Origin: a virus | Virus record (IMG/VR): IMGVR_UViG_3300044568_003751 | Coordinates: 25,312 to 89,311 of that record | DNA: 64,000 nucleotides | Reading direction: 5' to 3' (one strand) | Shown here: in pieces, positions 25,183 through 51,603 of the stretch | Layout: every line of letters starts with the position of its first letter | Numbering within the stretch: position 1 is the first letter of the stretch | The notes under the pieces: model-generated | What the model was told of the DNA's origin: nothing | The model's input: the letters and a program-made list of their open reading frames with translations, nothing else | Database searches by the model: none | Translations under genes and position numbers: made by a program

Positions 25183-25214
25183 TATTATAGCAAATGGGTA
25201 ATTATTGGTCAACC
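25183..25214 (-). promoter_or_regulatory. Sigma70-type early promoter, 32 bp identical to 51237..51268
   Basis: GGTTGACCAATAATTACCCATTTGCTATAATA. Confidence 0.85.
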
Positions 25215-25442
25215 AAATGCTTTGACTAGTCCTGTAAGCCCAATTGCCAGTGCAACAATGTTCACCAACAACTGTGGCTTATTTGCAACACGAATTGACC
25301 ATGCCATGAACAGTATAGTACCCAGGAAAAATGCAAGGATATTGTAGGGATAGGCCGCAGGACCCACGGCGTTGAGACTGTGGCCTGCTATGATAAACAC
25401 TGCTCCGGTCCACTGTAGTATTTCGTTGATTTCTAATTTCAT
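25209..25442 (-). CDS. Small three-helix membrane protein
   Basis: Hydrophobic; TTGACC/TATAAT promoter directly upstream, so leaderless. Confidence 0.7.
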   Translation of the reverse strand: MKLEINEILQWTGAVFIIAGHSLNAVGPAAYPYNILAFFLGTILFMAWSIRVANKPQLLVNIVALAIGLTGLVKAFG

Positions 25443-35334: not shown

Positions 35335-35409
35335 TGGTGGACCGTCCCGGGTTCGAACCGGGGACTGAGGCTTGCAAAGCCACTGTGTTCCCAACTATAC
35401 CAACAGCCC
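35335..35409 (-). tRNA. tRNA-Ala(UGC)
   Basis: TTTGCAA loop, G3:U70. Confidence 0.93.
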
Positions 35410-35415
35410 ATAATT

Positions 35416-35489
35416 TGGCGACTCGTGATGGAATCGAACCACCGCTAGAAGTTTTGGAGACTTCCGCACTGCCACTATACTAACGAGCC
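35416..35489 (-). tRNA. tRNA-Trp(CCA)
   Basis: CTCCAAA loop, GCCA end. Confidence 0.93.
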
Positions 35490-35649
35490 ACGTCACACTG
35501 TTGCCAATGTGTGTATCAAAACACACTCTAAGAATATGCTTTGATACGCTCGGATTTTTTTTGTGTACAAGAACACAAGCCATCCCCGAGGCCGCCCATT
35601 TGCAGTTTTGAGTGTTGCAGGCTCGCGTTGCCATTGCACTTGATAACGC

Positions 35650-35697
35650 TTATTGCACGTTATCGTGAATCCACTTCCAGTACTCTTCTGTTGTCAT
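35650..35697 (-). CDS. 15-aa mini-ORF MTTEEYWKWIHDNVQ
   Basis: AAGGAGA RBS; lies between the attenuator terminator and tRNA-Trp. Confidence 0.5.
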   Translation of the reverse strand: MTTEEYWKWIHDNVQ

Positions 35698-35710
35698 CGC
35701 TGTTCTCCTT

Positions 35711-35745
35711 AAAAAGAAAAACCCTGGAGTTTTTAGTTCCAGGGT
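35711..35745 (-). terminator. Intrinsic terminator of putative attenuator 1
   Basis: ACCCTGGA-loop-TCCAGGGT followed by TTTTCTTTTT. Confidence 0.85.
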
Positions 35746-35774
35746 CCTTGGCTTAGATACGATTGTATACTACG

Positions 35775-35888
35775 TTAAGACCCTGTGTCTCCTAGAATGA
35801 TTGCTGTTGGGCGACCATAGGCATGTGACCAGGCTGGTGCCTGATTAAACATTGTCTTGGTTAGCAGTGAACAGATTTGTGTTTTCAT
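35775..35888 (-). CDS. Putative leader peptide 1 (37 aa, MKTQICSLLTKTMFNQAPAWSHAYGRPTAIILGDTGS)
   Basis: ATG 7 nt after a consensus -10; 3' end complementary to the terminator 5' arm. Confidence 0.6.
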   Translation of the reverse strand: MKTQICSLLTKTMFNQAPAWSHAYGRPTAIILGDTGS

Positions 35889-35895
35889 AGTATCA

Positions 35896-35924
35896 ATTAT
35901 AGTTTATTTACCTTTGTGTGTCAA
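35896..35924 (-). promoter_or_regulatory. Consensus sigma70 promoter heading the main tRNA operon
   Basis: TTGACA-N17-TATAAT; spacer also contains TAAATA. Confidence 0.85.
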
Positions 35925-35965
35925 TCACTTTGGCAAACTTTTTTGTTGTATTTACGCAACAGATT

Positions 35966-37096
35966 TTATTCACCTATACAGAAGGGTTTGCTGTAGATTG
36001 GTGCACCAACATCTTTTCCAATTATGCTGTTAACGGGATTGGTACTGTTTTCTATCAAATGATTACAAAAGTTTTTTTCTAACAAAAGATTTTTTATGCC
36101 TTTTACAAAAAGATCGGCCACAACATTGTCCTTCTTTAGCAAGGCATCTAGGCCAGTATCAAATGTTCGGGAAAGATCACCGTCAATGGTGTCCATTGTT
36201 ATTACTACTGATTCAAATTTATTTTCTTGTATTTTTTGTGTGAAACTGCCACCTGATACTATCTCTTTTTGTCTAGACAAATTTTTTGCCCAAGAAATAT
36301 AAGCGGCATTAGAAGAAATTCTAAATTTTGCGCCAGTAGGATCTAGACTAGCATTGTATGCATTTGCATTCATACGAAGTTTAAGCATTTTTTTAATCAT
36401 ATGACTTTGTTTGAGTGCCAAGACTGGGGCAGTAAAAAAACATTCAATATTCTCAAAATTCATTGTACTCAGCAAGGTTCTTGCATCATGACATGAATAA
36501 TATTTGTTATCTTTCTTGAATACTCTAGGTTGCTCGTGTCCAGTAATCAAACACCAAGTTGATCCACCAAACTGGTCGGCACAGTAATCCCACATGACAG
36601 AGTCCATGGTTCCCATGGCAAATTTAGGAATCATAGAAATATTTTTAAAAATCCAATCTTCTCCGGTTACAATTTGTTGTTTAGCCGCAGGATCAAATCG
36701 TTCTTTGACAGTGATTTTGGTCAAGGGATCATGATGATTATTTTTCAGCCAATCCACATACTGTGAATTGTACCAGGGCTCGTACTGATCATTTACCCAG
36801 ATAACAATTTCATCAATATGCAAATTATTACGTTTGAACACTTCGTAGATGGTCTGACTGTCAGTGCCACCGCTCCAGGACAGCATAACGTGTTGATATT
36901 TGTTTCTTAAATTACATGCATGGCGATCCATCAGTTGATCAAGAGACTCGGTGGGTTCTTGCAACCAATTCAGTTGATCATTCTGTTGATCATGACAAAC
37001 AAACTCAATGGGTTTCTTGCTTACAAATGCCTCATATTTGGCAAGCAGGTGATTGAAAATTATTTTATTGTTGACACGAAAGTAGATGGAAGTCAT
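35966..37096 (-). CDS. PP-loop protein of unknown function
   Basis: LRNKY..LSWSGGTDS..FKRNNLHIDEI, GHEQPR; paralog of 43574..44689. Confidence 0.7.
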   Translation of the reverse strand: MTSIYFRVNNKIIFNHLLAKYEAFVSKKPIEFVCHDQQNDQLNWLQEPTESLDQLMDRHACNLRNKYQHVMLSWSGGTDSQTIYEVFKRNNLHIDEIVIWVNDQYEPWYNSQYVDWLKNNHHDPLTKITVKERFDPAAKQQIVTGEDWIFKNISMIPKFAMGTMDSVMWDYCADQFGGSTWCLITGHEQPRVFKKDNKYYSCHDARTLLSTMNFENIECFFTAPVLALKQSHMIKKMLKLRMNANAYNASLDPTGAKFRISSNAAYISWAKNLSRQKEIVSGGSFTQKIQENKFESVVITMDTIDGDLSRTFDTGLDALLKKDNVVADLFVKGIKNLLLEKNFCNHLIENSTNPVNSIIGKDVGAPIYSKPFCIGE

Positions 37097-37105
37097 GTGT
37101 ATGAT

Positions 37106-37179
37106 TGGATGCGGGGGACAGATTCGAACTGCCGATGCACCTGGCTTATGAGACCGGTGTGGTGACCGCCCTCCCCGCT
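37106..37179 (-). tRNA. tRNA-Met(CAU), initiator-like, reduced D arm
   Basis: A1.A72 mismatch, CTCATAA loop, GTTCGAATC, CCA. Confidence 0.75.
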
Positions 37180-37189
37180 GTGTATTTAA

Positions 37190-37417
37190 TGCTCTGCGTC
37201 CCCCGGCGGTAATTATAGTGTATCAGAAATTTGGTCAGCAAGCGATTAACTCACCAATTAGTCTATTCATCACTTACACCCTCCACCCGCTTCCCGACAG
37301 GGACCGTTCTCGTATTGCTAACGCCGGTTAGGTTGGACCGCTGATTGCTCAGTGAAACTTTTCCGTTTCAGAACCACCCGTAGTTGTCACACTACTTCTC
37401 ATCGTCGGGGTCAGACT
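37190..37417 (-). ncRNA. Unannotated structured RNA of about 230 nt
   Basis: Closing pairings TCTG/CAGA, CCCC/GGGG, GGTGGTT/AATTACC; several internal hairpins; no convincing ORF. Confidence 0.6.
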
Positions 37418-37508
37418 ATCCAGTGACGCTGGAACGTTTGGGAGAGGCCACGGTTGCAGGATCTAGTGCCTTTTGCAAGGGAAGTATCCAGGCGGTGCGG
37501 CCTCAAAC
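37418..37508 (-). ncRNA. Small structured RNA 3' of tRNA-Asp
   Basis: GTTTG/CAAAC, GAGGCCGC/GTGGCCTC, CCTT-GCAA-AAGG. Confidence 0.45.
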
Positions 37509-37509
37509 T

Positions 37510-37585
37510 TGGCGGTCTTAGGGGGTAACGATCCCCACTCTTACGGCGTGACAAGCCGTCGTGCGTCCATGAACACTTTAAGACC
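37510..37585 (-). tRNA. tRNA-Asp(GUC)
   Basis: TTGTCAC loop, GCCA end; T loop ATCGTTA. Confidence 0.92.
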
Positions 37586-37588
37586 AAA

Positions 37589-37742
37589 TTTTTATAGTCA
37601 AGCACCGAGAATGCCAATTTAGGAGTCCTGCGCTAACAGTTCCAAAGCCGATGCAGTTATATTAGGATCAGTCGCCGGCCGCTGTGACCCGAATAGTGTT
37701 GGCGTCCCAACACGATACCTTATCGATGCTTGACTATAAAAA
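37589..37742 (-). ncRNA. Unannotated RNA closed by a 16-bp perfect stem
   Basis: TTTTTATAGTCAAGCA ... TGCTTGACTATAAAAA; internal GTGTTGG-GACG-CCAACAC. Confidence 0.6.
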
Positions 37743-37745
37743 CAA

Positions 37746-37821
37746 TGGTGCTCCGTGGGGGAATCGAACCCCTCCTTACCCGCGTGAAAGGCGAGTGTCC
37801 TAACCGATAGACGAACGGAGC
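37746..37821 (-). tRNA. tRNA-Glu(UUC)
   Basis: CTTTCAC loop, CCA. Confidence 0.93.
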
Positions 37822-37830
37822 ATGTGATTT

Positions 37831-38024
37831 TACATTGAGGAACCATGTGGATCTTATTCTGCTTGGCTTGCGAGGCCAAGTCACCACGGTCATTACTGCC
37901 AGACGATCCGCCGCTTTTCTGAAACTGCAAGCAGTCTCGGCTTCATGACTGATAGCAAGTGGGCATCCGCCGATGCCAATTCACTTCTACCAATGCCACT
38001 AACGGGTCTGGTAACCTCTTTGTA
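37831..38024 (-). ncRNA. Unannotated multibranched RNA of about 195 nt
   Basis: TACA..GAGG/CCTC..TGTA closure, CCAGAC/GTCTGG, GGCATC/GATGCC, GAGACTG/CAGTTTC, CTTGGC/GCCAAG. Confidence 0.6.
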
Positions 38025-38081
38025 TATTTTAAAGATCTGTTGCAAGTAGTCTCGATCGACTTTGTTGCTTTGTTAAGTTCT

Positions 38082-38110
38082 ATTGTAGCAGAGTTTCAAT
38101 TTATGGTCTA
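38082..38110 (-). promoter_or_regulatory. Internal sigma70-type promoter
   Basis: TAGACC-N17-TACAAT with TG extended -10. Confidence 0.55.
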
Positions 38111-38114
38111 GCAC

Positions 38115-38143
38115 AAAAAAGAAAACCCTCCGAAGTGGAGGGT
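38115..38143 (-). terminator. Intrinsic terminator of putative attenuator 2
   Basis: ACCCTCC-ACTTC-GGAGGGT followed by TTTCTTTTTT. Confidence 0.88.
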
Positions 38144-38165
38144 CTTTGTAAGTAGTACTTTCGTA

Positions 38166-38243
38166 TTACAGGCAAAGTCCCCAATGGCAATCCCACTCAT
38201 GTTCTGAGCGAAGGGTTGTGATGATTGCAGTTGTTTGGTTCAT
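38166..38243 (-). CDS. Putative leader peptide 2 (25 aa, MNQTTAIITTLRSEHEWDCHWGLCL)
   Basis: ATG 6 nt after TATAAT; 3' end complementary to the terminator 5' arm. Confidence 0.6.
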   Translation of the reverse strand: MNQTTAIITTLRSEHEWDCHWGLCL

Positions 38244-38249
38244 AAGTGT

Positions 38250-38278
38250 ATTATATATGACAAGTGATTGAAAGTCAA
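38250..38278 (-). promoter_or_regulatory. Sigma70 promoter heading the Glu/Asp/Met operon
   Basis: TTGACT-N17-TATAAT. Confidence 0.8.
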
Positions 38279-38329
38279 GGCTTTTTGGCTCGATTGCAAG
38301 CAGGATCTCAACAAACTGTGTTACTTTGC

Positions 38330-39223
38330 TCATTTCTTAGTCAATAGTTTTACTGCCTGTTGATACTCACGCTCAATATCACGTGCAAACTCATCGGGTG
38401 TTTGTTTTCGGGGAACTCCAGCATGTACCACAGTAACAATTTGTTTTTGCACTTCTTCGTTGGCTCTAGCACTTTCTAGCACATTGTACAAGCGATCACG
38501 TGTGTCTTTGGGGGTGCCCGGTGGCGCCCAGAACCCAGTCCAGCCTTCTTGGCTGATATTGTACCCAAGTTCCACAAGACTTTTTATACCATTACGTCCC
38601 TTTGGGGTTAGTACTGCCAGGCCGTTTAGTTCTCCAGTGGCAACTCGATCCTCCAACAAGAAAGTAACAGTGGTAACTTCGATACTCTTGTTCATCAATG
38701 CCAACATGGCCGCATTGTCACCGTTGTAGTTCACCATGATGAGATTGGGATTGTTGCCCAACAATTCTTCAAGTGCAATTCTGGTAATAGCGCCATTGTT
38801 GCCCACGGCTACTGTGCGTGTTTTCAATGCAGACTTCAGTTGCTCAACTGTGCGGATGTCGGAGTCTTTGCGACTGATCAGCATCTGACCGTTTGTGGCA
38901 CCACGCATGAGTGGCACAATCTTTGTCATGATTTCGTGGGCCGCGGGGTTACTGGCAGAATTGTAAACCACTGCACTGCTACCGGTATACATCACAGTGT
39001 TGCCGTCGGGCTTGGCTGCCATCAACTCCTGCATGCCAACTAGGCCTTCGGCGCCAGGTTTGTTGACCACTATGGCCTCAACGCCCTGGCGTGCCAATTC
39101 CTTGGCATACACACGTGCCGCAAGGTCAGTGTTGCCTCCGGCCGCATAGGTAACAATAATTTTCAATGGTTCTGCCGCATGAGCAGAAGCCACAAGTAAT
39201 AGTGAGAGTAAAAGTTTTTTCAT
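38330..39223 (-). CDS. Bug/TctC tripartite tricarboxylate transporter substrate-binding protein
   Basis: Signal peptide, YAAGGNTD..AR, NKPGAEG, KPDGNT, W.GFWAPPGTP. Confidence 0.92.
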   Translation of the reverse strand: MKKLLLSLLLVASAHAAEPLKIIVTYAAGGNTDLAARVYAKELARQGVEAIVVNKPGAEGLVGMQELMAAKPDGNTVMYTGSSAVVYNSASNPAAHEIMTKIVPLMRGATNGQMLISRKDSDIRTVEQLKSALKTRTVAVGNNGAITRIALEELLGNNPNLIMVNYNGDNAAMLALMNKSIEVTTVTFLLEDRVATGELNGLAVLTPKGRNGIKSLVELGYNISQEGWTGFWAPPGTPKDTRDRLYNVLESARANEEVQKQIVTVVHAGVPRKQTPDEFARDIEREYQQAVKLLTKK

Positions 39224-39918
39224 AGTTGATCGTAATCCAATTTAAAAGGTACGCTAGATTCAGCAAGTGCTGTGAAACGATCTGTGACCAGGCCACTCAA
39301 TCGCAACAGAGCCCTGTGCCAATATCCAGCGTTAAAAGTGCTATGAGCACCTGTGGGCCAATCCCAATGCACAACATCTCCTGCTTGCCAGTGAGTGTAA
39401 ATTTCGTCTCCAAAAATAATACCTTGTCCCCAGCGCCAGTCAGTGAGCAATATTAACACACGACTGGCAGTGCGTCTATCATTTTGAAAAGCCGCAATTT
39501 CTTCGTCACTGAATTGAATCTTGTGTATACTGGATTCTTCAGGCGTGATATAACCGTATCCAAGTTCGTCGATGTGCAATGGTTGCAATGCACCTGGCGC
39601 AAGTGTTTGTACTCGACCACTGGGCTTGCGATAGCCAATCAAATGACCAATACGTTCTACCACGGTGGTATCGGTAACCAACCATCTATCAAAGTCTTTT
39701 GGGTCTGCGGACTCGCCAACAATGGTGCTGATATCAGTGTCTTTGTAGCCCAGTTCTTGGGTCAACTGTTCTGCCACTGCCAGCCGGCTGATGTGTTTTG
39801 CTTCCTGCAAACTGGGAATACTTTGTGCAATAGTCTGTCCGTGACTTAGAAATTTATTCCAACTTTGATGTGGAGGGATATTACGGATGTTGCCTATATA
39901 TTTATAATGTTTTGTCAT
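39220..39918 (-). CDS. Hypothetical cupin/2OG-Fe(II)-like protein
   Basis: PG..QPLHID, W.AGDV..W, HSTFNAG..R. Confidence 0.6.
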   Translation of the reverse strand: MTKHYKYIGNIRNIPPHQSWNKFLSHGQTIAQSIPSLQEAKHISRLAVAEQLTQELGYKDTDISTIVGESADPKDFDRWLVTDTTVVERIGHLIGYRKPSGRVQTLAPGALQPLHIDELGYGYITPEESSIHKIQFSDEEIAAFQNDRRTASRVLILLTDWRWGQGIIFGDEIYTHWQAGDVVHWDWPTGAHSTFNAGYWHRALLRLSGLVTDRFTALAESSVPFKLDYDQL

Positions 39919-41501: not shown

Positions 41502-41543
41502 ACTTACATTATACATTTGTATAACGCTGTTGTCTATTTATTC

Positions 41544-45575: not shown

Positions 45576-45729
45576 GGGTTCTCCTAAAAGTTTATTATAC
45601 ACGATTGCTAGTAGGAGGTCTACATACGGTGCGGCGTTCTGAGCATAGTATGTCAGTAAAAGGGTCACTACCCCGGGCGTCACTTGTGATACCGACGTCA
45701 GCCTGTTGCTGGCGTTACAGAAATATTTA
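45576..45729 (-). promoter_or_regulatory. Structured 5' leader with anti-SD (riboswitch candidate)
   Basis: Starts after TAAATA; hairpins; CTCCTA complementary to the TAGGAG SD. Confidence 0.45.
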
Positions 45730-46713
45730 GTTCTGCAAGTCGATCATGTAAAAATCTTGTCCAAATCTGTACAATGAATGCATGTGACTTGAGTAGGTAA
45801 TAGCATCTCTGAATCGTTGACTAAATTCACTGTGCGCATCAGTATAGTAACTGACTCCCAGTTCTAATATCAATTTAATAACATTGATCAATGTTTTTTT
45901 GCTAAAAGCATATTGAGTGTTGCGTTTGTTCCAAAATTCATGTGACAGTGTTGTTTCTTCAATTGTGTAGAGATTGTCATGCCACATCATATCCAAGGTG
46001 CATACATCTATTTCTAATTTTTTAATTTCAAACTCGGCACCACACTTGTTTTTTTCTGCATACTGTTTGATGTCTAAAAATAATTGTTTGGTAAGACCAA
46101 AATGATTGGTTAAAAAACACTGACTACTAAAATTACTTTGTTGAAAGAATGGCTGTGTACCTTTGATGCCAAGCACACATTCGGGGCCAATGGGTTGATT
46201 GTCAAACAGCAAACTACCGGGCCTGCTTATCTCCATGCCAATAGGGGTAAAAAATGAAAAGTCAACTTTGTGAGGAACTGTGTGCAAGTCAATGTAAACT
46301 AATAAAGGTTGTTGATCCTTCTCGATTTGTATAATCGCATAATCAGCTAAGTCAAGATTGCTCAACCATCTCTTTTGACCGTTTAATACATTATCTGTCA
46401 GAGTCATAGTATCAGATCGTTTTAGTATGCTATAGCATCCAATCAGTTGACCATATGATTGTGTCAACACACGGTCCTTGATGGTTGGAGAGGAACACAG
46501 TTGTACAGAAATTACGGCTGTGGCATAATGTTGTATGTTATGCGCTAGGCCTAAACTGAGTTGACTTAGCCGTTGTAGATTTTTAAAAAATAAGATTTTT
46601 TGATTAAAAGAAGAGTCAAGAAAATTTAAATCAAAGTAGCTTGATAACTTTGCTAAATTTTTTCGATCAAATTTTAAGTCAGATACTGATTCAGACAAAA
46701 AAGATTCTAGCAT
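45727..46713 (-). CDS. Acyl-CoA dehydrogenase-like protein
   Basis: LNGQKRWLSN, PIGM, FSQRFRDA...SH. Confidence 0.7.
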   Translation of the reverse strand: MLESFLSESVSDLKFDRKNLAKLSSYFDLNFLDSSFNQKILFFKNLQRLSQLSLGLAHNIQHYATAVISVQLCSSPTIKDRVLTQSYGQLIGCYSILKRSDTMTLTDNVLNGQKRWLSNLDLADYAIIQIEKDQQPLLVYIDLHTVPHKVDFSFFTPIGMEISRPGSLLFDNQPIGPECVLGIKGTQPFFQQSNFSSQCFLTNHFGLTKQLFLDIKQYAEKNKCGAEFEIKKLEIDVCTLDMMWHDNLYTIEETTLSHEFWNKRNTQYAFSKKTLINVIKLILELGVSYYTDAHSEFSQRFRDAITYSSHMHSLYRFGQDFYMIDLQN

Positions 46714-48424: not shown

Positions 48425-48447
48425 ACGTTTTTATTATAACAGGAACG

Positions 48448-48828
48448 TTATTTAGTCGCAACAGTGCCGTCTGCCAAGTGGTCCTGTTTGATTTCCCGCA
48501 CAGGATGCCCTAAGATAGTGGCAATGTAGTTTTTATAAACAATTCGTTTGTTGTTGAAATCACGAATTGCAATAGCACGACGACCGATCTCTTGTAGGCT
48601 CAACATCTGCTCTACCCCAGATTTCAGTTGCCATTCCAAGTCCCAGATAGCATGATGGATGTCAGTCATTGCTTGAATGTTTGCATCTAGTTCTGCGCTT
48701 TGTGGCAGTTGACGATATCGTTCTTCATACCAATCAAGTTCAATTTGGTTTGCGCCCTGAGTGCGAGCGTGTTTTACTCTAGCAATGCACAAGCGATCGA
48801 TGAGTTCTAGTACAGGAAGAAATTCCAT
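48448..48828 (-). CDS. Hypothetical protein
   Basis: 126 aa, ELIDRL..IWDLE..NNKR. Confidence 0.7.
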   Translation of the reverse strand: MEFLPVLELIDRLCIARVKHARTQGANQIELDWYEERYRQLPQSAELDANIQAMTDIHHAIWDLEWQLKSGVEQMLSLQEIGRRAIAIRDFNNKRIVYKNYIATILGHPVREIKQDHLADGTVATK

Positions 48829-51236: not shown

Positions 51237-51268
51237 TATTATAGCAAATGGGTAATTATTGGTCAACC
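51237..51268 (-). promoter_or_regulatory. Sigma70-type early promoter, identical to 25183..25214
   Basis: TTGACC-N17-TATAAT. Confidence 0.85.
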
Positions 51269-51603
51269 GCTTTTGTACGCACATCTGTGTTGAGTGCAGG
51301 TGTATACTTTCGTATTAGTTCACGCTCTAGTGTGTGCGCTTCAGTCTTGCCACGCACCGTGTCAACAATCGCAAAATTCACAGCCGACTCACCAGCGGCA
51401 CGAATTGCTTCGTACAGACGCCATGATTTGTCTTCTGTGCGTGAGCGATAGATGTGCTTGTTGATGCGTGAGCGCAGGCTCATGGTGATGGTGCGTTGAG
51501 TTTTTGCTGTAACACCAATGTAGTACTCCAGGCCAATTTGGATGAAGTAAACAATGTGTGTACGGTCCACTCGTTTTTTGCGTGATTGCTTTTTAAGTTC
51601 CAT
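51256..51603 (-). CDS. GIY-YIG-like nuclease domain protein
   Basis: HIVY..YYIGVT, R..KH, ERELI..P.LN; leaderless from the promoter at about 51610-51638. Confidence 0.7.

Follow-up and report, generated by a model that had tools for sequence, protein, structure and literature searches.

The stretch of DNA analysed here (the window) comprises 64,000 nucleotides, positions 25,312 to 89,311 of the IMG/VR virus record IMGVR_UViG_3300044568_003751, and its 26 tRNA genes and permuted tmRNA all lie on the minus strand. Upstream of a block that includes tRNA-Glu and tRNA-Asp lies a module of about 170 nt, here called leader 2, which by comparison with related sequences is probably a ribosome-sensing transcription attenuator, adding regulated transcription above the constitutive internal promoter of the Glu/Asp tRNA block. 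Attenuation is the best explanation on the grounds of comparative anatomy, rather than the thermodynamics of the window copy itself. The source record is 89,311 bases long with a CheckV completeness of about 26%, so that the window covers only part of the genome of a very large uncultured phage. All elements of leader 2 are on the minus strand (Table 1), and transcript positions are counted from the A of its ATG (nt 1 = 38243).

The promoter of leader 2 matches the consensus at 11 of 12 positions overall, and is among the three best matches of 43 promoter-like sites between 30000 and 42000. Its ATG (38243-38241) begins 6 nt past the -10 hexamer, the A being the seventh base after it, and opens a frame that ends with a stop codon at 38168-38166. 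The same spacing recurs on the minus strand, where 18 promoters score 11–12 of 12 and six of these are followed by an ATG 6–7 nt past the -10 hexamer, about 0.6 being expected by chance. Three of the six ATGs open frames of 115, 328 and 77 codons. The 115-codon product matches GIY-YIG endonuclease PHROGs from residue 3, and the 77-codon product matches DUF6552 from residue 8; no family match was found for the 328-codon product. Leaderless translation is, to judge from the sequence, used by this phage. The leaderless protein genes, each with its ATG 6 nt past a consensus -10 hexamer on the minus strand, are that of the GIY-YIG-type endonuclease (51256-51603), the 328-codon gene (45727-46713) and the gene of the DUF6552 membrane-like protein (25209-25442).

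An intrinsic terminator lies between the frame and the genes downstream. By pattern scan its stem spans 38146-38122, with ten pairs (five of them G-C) and a U-tract running to about 38115. Only three strong terminators (-14 kcal/mol or better) occur on the coding strand of the 89-kb record, two of which follow leader 2 and another module of the window, leader 1 (35711-35924). The minimum-energy fold of leader 2 consists of two hairpins, P1 (nt 16-57) and P2 (nt 67-100), and the terminator (nt 101-119); its z-score is -2.55, and 3 of 200 shuffles fold equally well. The end of the frame (38182-38173) pairs with 38148-38139 at nine of ten positions, with one G-U pair and one A-A mismatch. This antiterminator is, in the window copy, P2 extended by four further pairs across the A-A mismatch. 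When the transcript is cut before the terminator 3' arm, the 5' arm is predicted to pair upstream with a mean probability of 0.78.

The promoter, ATG, 25-codon frame, terminator and nine-of-ten pairing described in an earlier note on this DNA were all recovered in place. That note had also drawn a hairpin enclosed by the pairing. The hairpin exists, but the register drawn for it shares two bases with the pairing, so that the two are mutually exclusive, and it holds in 80% of cells on seven variants from related sequences against 100% for the minimum-energy register. Two other candidate elements were rejected: a C-rich stretch at nt 29-31, considered as a partner of the G-run, is lost in one relative (L077), and the loop of the inner hairpin, considered as a boxB-like GNRA element, is not conserved. 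A search of the 89-kb record with both leaders (blastn-short) found no second copy and no match longer than 14 nt. Rfam, used with gathering scores and with E up to 5, placed no family on the leader and gave 0 matches on the divergent relative L087; the best leader match, Phe_leader (RF01859), reached 20.1 bits against a threshold of 55 (E = 4.3) and covered only the terminator region.

Table 1. Coordinates of leader 2 and of the features directly downstream of it (positions in the window).
Feature	Position	Strand	Remarks
-35 hexamer, leader promoter	38273..38278	minus	5/6 consensus letters, 17-nt spacer
-10 hexamer, perfect consensus	38250..38255	minus	pattern scan
Leaderless 25-codon frame and stop	38166..38243	minus	A is the predicted transcription start
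Hairpin P1, inside the frame	38187..38228	minus	transcript nt 16-57
Antiterminator 5' strand, codons 21-24	38173..38182	minus	transcript nt 62-71
Hairpin P2, lower part of the antiterminator; compatible with the terminator	38144..38177	minus	transcript nt 67-100
Antiterminator 3' strand	38139..38148	minus	last 5 bases are the start of the terminator 5' arm
Intrinsic terminator: 7-8 bp stem, 5-nt loop, U-tract	38115..38143	minus	scan and fold
Second promoter P', extended -10 type	38082..38110	minus	directly after the terminator
Structured non-coding RNA, P' to tRNA-Glu	37822..38075	minus	compensatory changes in two hairpins
tRNA-Glu (UUC)	37746..37821	minus	
tRNA-Asp (GUC)	37510..37585	minus	ARAGORN only; Rfam tRNA model below gathering score

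Ten variants of leader 2 were compiled, namely those of the window, the L002 group, L032, L033, L034, L059, L077, L086, L087 and L088. The gene just upstream in the window encodes a TctC-family binding protein (tctC; Pfam E = 4.7e-23), and with TctC and a 376-codon protein encoded further downstream, between the two tRNA blocks, as anchors, six close variants at 91–96% identity were obtained; a pattern scan added the seventh, L077. Strict and relaxed scans of the first 74 loci recovered only the leader-1 and leader-2 families. The divergent variants (L086, L087 and L088) needed a downstream anchor, an 18-nt core of the structured RNA; it gave 15 hits, of which L084 and L085 were set aside as chance matches (apparent coding sequence, no P').

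Across the ten variants the distance from the leader -35 hexamer to the ATG is constant. The -10 hexamer is invariant in the seven close variants and has one letter changed in L087 and L088. Loss of the frame among relatives was named in the earlier note as an outcome that would speak against an attenuator, and the frame is kept, open from the ATG, in all ten (25 codons in nine, 29 in L086); nine variants were scored by script, the other two frames being interrupted in each, and L059 was read from the alignment. The strand complementary to the terminator arm, which the note had pointed out, is invariant in the relatives and always covered by the frame. The frame of L086 has been shifted by indels across the antiterminator strand but remains open for 29 codons, with a stop 9 nt past that strand. 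All three divergent variants have a near-consensus promoter, an ATG 6 nt past the -10 hexamer, a frame and a terminator, and then P', the structured RNA and tRNA-Glu.

Pairing is likewise maintained. On ten variants, the two helices of P1 pair in 96.6% (outer) and 94.3% (inner) of cells, with two pairs changed on both sides and four changed on one side with pairing kept; P2 has one pair with a change on both sides (C-G in four variants, U-A in one). Stem changes preserve pairing in the seven close variants. The A-A mismatch of the window antiterminator is replaced by a U-A or U-G pair in L086, L087 and L088, so the window copy is the weaker version of the antiterminator. In L087 and L086 the antiterminator hairpin is the full-length minimum-energy fold (z-scores of -3.7 and -3.1). 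In nine variants, the energy of the antiterminator fold minus that of the terminator fold lies between -2.1 and +3.7 kcal/mol; the two folds are near-isoenergetic, and the switch, as modelled, is near bistable.

The position of the module is also telling. P' and the start of the structured RNA follow directly after nine of the ten variants, the contig of L059 ending before P'. Downstream, tRNA-Glu is present wherever the contig reaches, and tRNA-Asp in the window, the L002 group, L032, L033, L034, L077, L086 and L088 (the L087 contig ends earlier). The upstream neighbours differ, with at least four contexts: tctC, a small zinc-ribbon frame, the tmRNA (directly behind which the leader stands in L086) and another gene. 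A less biased view is given by the ten loci that carry the downstream RNA unit, seven of which have a leader directly upstream and two have tRNAs there with the leader further up; L081 has none. By gene order, the module is seen to travel with the downstream RNA and the tRNA-Glu/Asp block, not with tctC.

The zinc-ribbon-like frame is 54 codons long and ends at the -35 hexamer in six of the ten variants (five of the first six, and L077). In the relatives it lies between tctC and the leader (L002 3915-4130), with two CxxC pairs and its own ribosome-binding site, and its stop codon overlaps the leader -35 hexamer. The window has a 179-nt deletion (junction 38310/38311), which leaves the last 35 nt or so of this frame (38276-38311).

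Leader 2 belongs to a family of three leader types. The leader-1 type has frames of 35–43 codons and a third type, found in L079/L083, L080, L082 and L089, has frames of 40–48 codons. Leader 1 and the third type share with leader 2 a consensus promoter, an ATG no more than 3 nt from the predicted start, a frame running over a GGGNC strand complementary to the terminator arm, and the style of terminator. They differ in their longer frames; P1 is a feature of leader 2, as is the antiterminator mismatch of the window lineage, and leader 2 is followed by P' whereas a 15-codon frame with a ribosome-binding site follows the other types. All 22 distinct modules of the three types have an unchanged GGGNC core between diverging flanks, and since this core is read in all three codon phases across the types, the constraint on it is one on RNA. 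The stop codon lies -2 to +16 nt from the end of the 12-nt segment bearing the strand and 19–29 nt before the terminator arm in 24 of 25 rows; in the 25th (L080) the best segment picked by the script lies elsewhere and its offset is not comparable. The terminator helix is paired in 100% of 154 cells on the 22 modules, with 17 changed on both sides, which none of 500 shuffles reach. The nine antiterminator pairs hold in 81.7% of cells, with four both-sides changes, all at pair 10-60. An exclusive antiterminator that uses the terminator 5' arm is found across the family, weakened in the window copy by its mismatch, and the frame overlaps the switch strand, as judged by geometry only.

The earlier note took the sequences of leaders 1 and 2 to be unrelated, and argued from their shared layout against chance. 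This argument does not hold. In their 3' halves 19 of 40 anchored positions are identical (p of about 0.004), so that the two leaders are relatives, and all three types align in one block; an unanchored local alignment of leader 1 with leader 2 found only the U-tract and a 13-nt match. On this sequence evidence the three types are relatives by inheritance, not independent inventions, but the long retention of both leader copies still speaks for function. Within the leader 1 frame, indels are multiples of three, and indels of 1 nt and 13 nt occur just outside it. One third-type leader heads a tRNA array, with 24 tRNAs listed in L082 and 15 in the shorter L089; in both, P', the structured RNA, tRNA-Glu and tRNA-Asp lie inside the array, directly after other tRNAs. 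The 15-codon frame right after the leader 1 terminator (35650-35697, minus strand) has a strong ribosome-binding site; its amino acids are conserved behind the third-type leaders of L079 and L080, and it is deleted in L033, L034, L039 and L042/L043.

P' was raised in the earlier note as a caveat, being a possible source of basal expression, and this has been borne out by its conservation in all ten loci with the downstream RNA unit. In each it stands at the 5' end of the structured RNA, twice within a tRNA array. Among five aligned close variants its hexamers are invariant and two spacer columns vary, and its -35 hexamer is nearer to consensus in L079, L080, L082, L083 and L089. Given this conservation, the Glu/Asp block has a constitutive promoter of its own, to which the leader can only add. 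The first 95 nt or so of the structured RNA are almost invariant (one variable column in five variants). In every relative whose downstream sequence is long enough, tRNA-Glu comes next after this RNA, with tRNA-Asp behind it if the contig extends that far. The unit with its own promoter was seen in L077, L079-L083 and L086-L089, placed after a leader or within a tRNA array.

We infer that the frame is translated and that the switch would have the following direction and physiological trigger. Host RNA polymerase would start at the near-consensus sigma-70 promoter, with the A of the AUG as first base, and a 70S ribosome would load on the leaderless RNA at once. Two folds would then compete, as the strand at codons 21-24 may pair with the start of the terminator 5' arm (the antiterminator), or the arm may close the terminator hairpin. 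A ribosome anywhere from codon 18 to the stop while the terminator 3' arm is being made would cover the antiterminator strand, and the terminator would form, with an end at about 38115. A ribosome lagging in codons 1-16, or one that never loaded, would let the antiterminator form first, with read-through to the structured RNA, tRNA-Glu, tRNA-Asp and beyond. The weaker conserved promoter past the terminator would supply a constitutive floor and the leader a conditional boost, so that the leader would not be the sole gate.

This direction was modelled by masking the footprint of a ribosome on the truncated transcript of the window copy and then folding it. The terminator arm is paired upstream with a mean probability of 0.84–0.98 when the A site is at codons 3-16, and free (0.00–0.05) from codon 18 to the stop. 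In the model, then, a pace-keeping ribosome favours termination, and a lagging or absent one favours read-through; the antiterminator strand has no rival partner upstream, and RNA that is not translated should therefore read through as well. The leader probably lets more transcription through when ribosomes lag.

Several observations weigh against such an attenuator. Some concern the folds. In the window and its six closest relatives (seven of the ten variants) the antiterminator sequesters only four of the seven terminator-arm bases and carries a 1x1 mismatch, and the terminator state is favoured by 1.7–3.7 kcal/mol. At equilibrium the terminator has a probability of 0.8–1.0 at every modelled ribosome position. 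Of 500 dinucleotide shuffles, 8.4% reach at least the same sequestration of the arm, a share that rises to 11.6% with P2 kept; taken alone, the antiterminator pairing of the window is not beyond chance. Antiterminator covariation is matched by 34 of 500 shuffles on the ten variants, where most pairs never vary and are thus uninformative, and it is not above control on the 22 modules either (85 of 500 shuffles). P1 does not overlap the antiterminator strand and, unlike in trp, there is no 1:2 pairing that would enforce termination of untranslated RNA.

Others concern the frame. An open frame of 25 codons is by itself unremarkable, the other two frames having one stop each over the same 78 nt. 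Purifying selection on the leader peptide is not seen: a hand count on the alignments gave about 12 non-synonymous base changes against about 5 synonymous ones, 3-base periodicity is absent, and amino-acid changes are frequent and radical among the seven close variants. Translation of the frame is consequently deduced from its geometry only. Because P' is conserved past the terminator, transcription of the tRNA block is moreover not dependent on read-through. No leader stands within 520 nt in L081, which has two P'-like promoters in tandem, and the module scan, which required a frame, was blind to frame-less copies.

It is possible, though doubtful, that the leader is also a codon-addressed gauge, in which the phage would turn on its tRNA-Glu and tRNA-Asp genes when usable tRNA-Glu or tRNA-Asp ran short, for instance because host tRNAs had been cleaved or the cell was starved. 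Codons 13, 14, 16 and 18 (Ser, Glu, Glu, Asp) are kept in all nine 25-codon variants, L086 having the same residues with different Ser and Glu codons, and the Glu codons stand at the last positions that leave the antiterminator strand free. By eye, both Glu and Asp codons occur in the control window of all ten leader-2 variants, and Glu in that of three of the four third-type leaders, which precede Glu/Asp tRNAs in L079, L082 and L089 (the L080 contig ends before any tRNA); Asp codons, too, were read there in the third type. Leader 1, read in the same manner, has neither codon in its control window, and its array lacks both tRNAs. Against this, and against a classical attenuator in general, a run of regulatory codons is absent, with no tandem Glu/Asp codons in leader 2. 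Two Glu and one Asp among 25 codons are about the share of an ordinary protein, so they do not form a cluster of cognate codons. These codons are also part of the P1 3' strand, and none of their synonymous sites differs among the four divergent 25-codon variants; a constraint on the RNA of this conserved hairpin explains them equally well.

Contigs from small shares (0.06–0.12) of four metatranscriptome runs were placed on 35400-39300; they give no ends, strand or levels. Three of them, from RNA libraries of different studies, bridge the termination point with at least 31 letters on each side (X1 record 7, X2 record 14 and X9 record 32), DNA carry-over not being excluded. Contigs also cross the leader promoter (X1 record 8, X7 record 22 and X9 record 32), so upstream transcripts or DNA exist, a further point against regulation by the leader. 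Contig depth cannot rank the parts, and the uncovered stretches (the 376-codon gene, and most of tctC in X1 and X9) are uninformative. One X1 contig joins 38090 to 38239, skipping 38091-38238, as would be expected of a variant without the body of the leader; it has only 22 letters on the shorter side, may be an artefact and was not counted.

Three other explanations were weighed against attenuation. With its strong promoter, its three hairpins and its U-tailed terminator the module has the standard anatomy of a bacterial small RNA, and it may be an autonomous small gene for a structured or dual-function RNA of about 125 nt acting in trans, with the tRNA block transcribed only from P', which, being conserved, can serve it alone, and with the two folds incidental. 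Stems that are more conserved than loops, amino-acid changes that are tolerated if pairs are kept and a peptide that appears to evolve neutrally would all agree with this. An ATG at the predicted start in ten of ten variants would not, nor would a frame that survives a frame-shifting rearrangement in L086, with a stop always just past the antiterminator strand. The module moreover always heads the tRNA block in the same orientation, and the 89-kb record holds no second copy or long antisense target, although it is only about a quarter of the genome and the host is not identified. On balance, a small-RNA gene is unlikely.

Less probable still is a factor-dependent switch, in which the hairpins or a phage protein would let polymerase resist the terminator, as HK022 put RNA or lambda Q/N do, the frame being irrelevant; only transcripts from the leader promoter would then pass the terminator, and those of upstream genes would be stopped there. 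In the pR'-tR' layout of phage lambda, a strong terminator likewise follows a promoter closely. The hairpins P1 and P2 are conserved and come directly past the start, and RNA-library contigs do cross the terminator. The inner loop is not conserved, however, being GNRA-like in the window and different in L002, L087 and L088, and P1 is replaced by a different hairpin in L086. No RNA family was matched in Rfam, and the three leader types have no common sequence upstream of the antiterminator strand, so that no RNA for binding a protein or polymerase is common to them. The conserved start ATG and stop placement would remain unexplained.

The last alternative, that there is no switch and the terminator merely ends the upstream operon (tctC, or the small zinc-ribbon frame in relatives), with promoter, ATG and frame due to chance or vestigial, is very improbable: same-style terminators do end ordinary genes in the related phage L011, each followed by a promoter, the small frame ends exactly at the -35 hexamer in six of ten variants and contigs cross the promoter from upstream, but the L011 distance is about 20 nt, whereas the terminator here lies about 165 nt past the upstream stop with a near-consensus promoter between. 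The module also stays when the upstream gene changes (tctC, tmRNA or others) and is lost with none, and the promoter hexamers, ATG spacing and complementary strand are conserved while the flanks are scrambled. The earlier note had named a terminator of the tctC transcript as the result that would overturn its proposal; the module follows the RNA/tRNA block instead.

Other features of the region were noted. Both the tmRNA and a tRNA-Met/tRNA-Arg pair are immediately preceded by a promoter (41508-41536 and 48433-48461, minus strand), and neither a leader nor a terminator intervenes, from which the leader design appears to be reserved for the two large tRNA blocks. Between tRNA-Asp and a CAU-anticodon tRNA-like gene lies a non-coding RNA of about 245 nt (37190-37440, minus strand) whose contig depth far exceeds that of the rest of 35400-39300, reaching 2140 in X7, 549 in X9 and 307 in X1; several variant joints occur in its variable hairpin. 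The tRNA-like gene itself (37109-37179, minus strand) was missed by ARAGORN in the window and scores 17.3 bits with Rfam; its counterparts are called tRNA-Met in L032 and tRNA-Ile (UAU) in L086 (13000-13091) by ARAGORN. It adjoins the gene for the 376-codon protein (35966-37096, minus strand), which has a PP-loop-type SGGxDS motif and 101 homologues and no Pfam match. This protein may be a tRNA-modifying enzyme for the adjoining CAU tRNA-like gene. A blastn search of 35400-39300 against GenBank phages at distant settings matched 59 records, none over more than 80% of the query, and in the 20 records listed the matches fall on tRNA genes or unannotated stretches of about 80 nt.

Enterobacterial leader-peptide attenuators comprise the trp, his, thr, ilv and pheA leaders of amino-acid operons. 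Leader 2 resembles them in its short promoter-near frame, its intrinsic terminator, a strand competing for the terminator 5' arm and a stop placed so that a finishing ribosome blocks that strand. It differs in its cargo, which is phage tRNAs and non-coding RNAs and not biosynthetic enzymes, in being leaderless with no Shine-Dalgarno sequence, in having no cognate codon run and in its conserved internal promoter past the terminator. It also has no 1:2 pairing, and its untranslated RNA is predicted to read through rather than terminate. Attenuation of the pyrBI/pyrE type senses the coupling of ribosome and polymerase, and here, too, the likely signal would be the distance from polymerase to the leading ribosome, not one amino acid. 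The sign is opposite, however. In pyrBI a close ribosome prevents the terminator, whereas in leader 2, where the frame stops 21 nt before the terminator arm, a close ribosome is predicted to favour it. The lambda module of pR', 6S RNA and tR', with Q antitermination, is alike in its strong phage promoter, a strong terminator within 200 nt and regulated read-through, but a conserved translated frame is not part of it, and no Q-like gene or binding element was identified for leader 2.

The trn operon of Anabaena PCC 7120, a 26-gene tRNA array, is the nearest case found and is switched on by translational stress (PMC10272220; see also PMC8421152). It, too, is an accessory tRNA array that is transcribed more strongly under impaired translation. 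It is controlled by the ribbon-helix-helix repressor TrcR, and the terms 'attenuat', 'leader' and 'terminator' occur 0 times each in that paper (PMC10272220); repressor control contrasts with the attenuation proposed for leader 2. A leader-peptide attenuator before tRNA genes was not found described in the published literature, most subscription journals being outside the coverage. Leader 2 would thus represent a leader-peptide attenuation design that differs from known ones in its leaderless start, its cargo of tRNAs and non-coding RNAs, the absence of a codon run and of 1:2 pairing, and its internal promoter.

Phage tRNA genes are usually regarded as constitutively expressed cargo. If the attenuator proposed here operates, the phage would gauge the decoding capacity of the cell and answer with its own tRNAs, which would be relevant to large phages facing codon mismatch, starvation or tRNA-destroying host defences. 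The consensus sigma-70 promoter, leaderless translation and size of about 170 nt make the module directly testable, and its natural variants (with and without the mismatch, or with a shifted frame) already amount to a mutational series. The family comprises three leader types with one shared switch core and an internal constitutive promoter; and if the more doubtful codon-addressed version were true, the three types would be related phage sensors, with each one tuned to its own downstream tRNA block.

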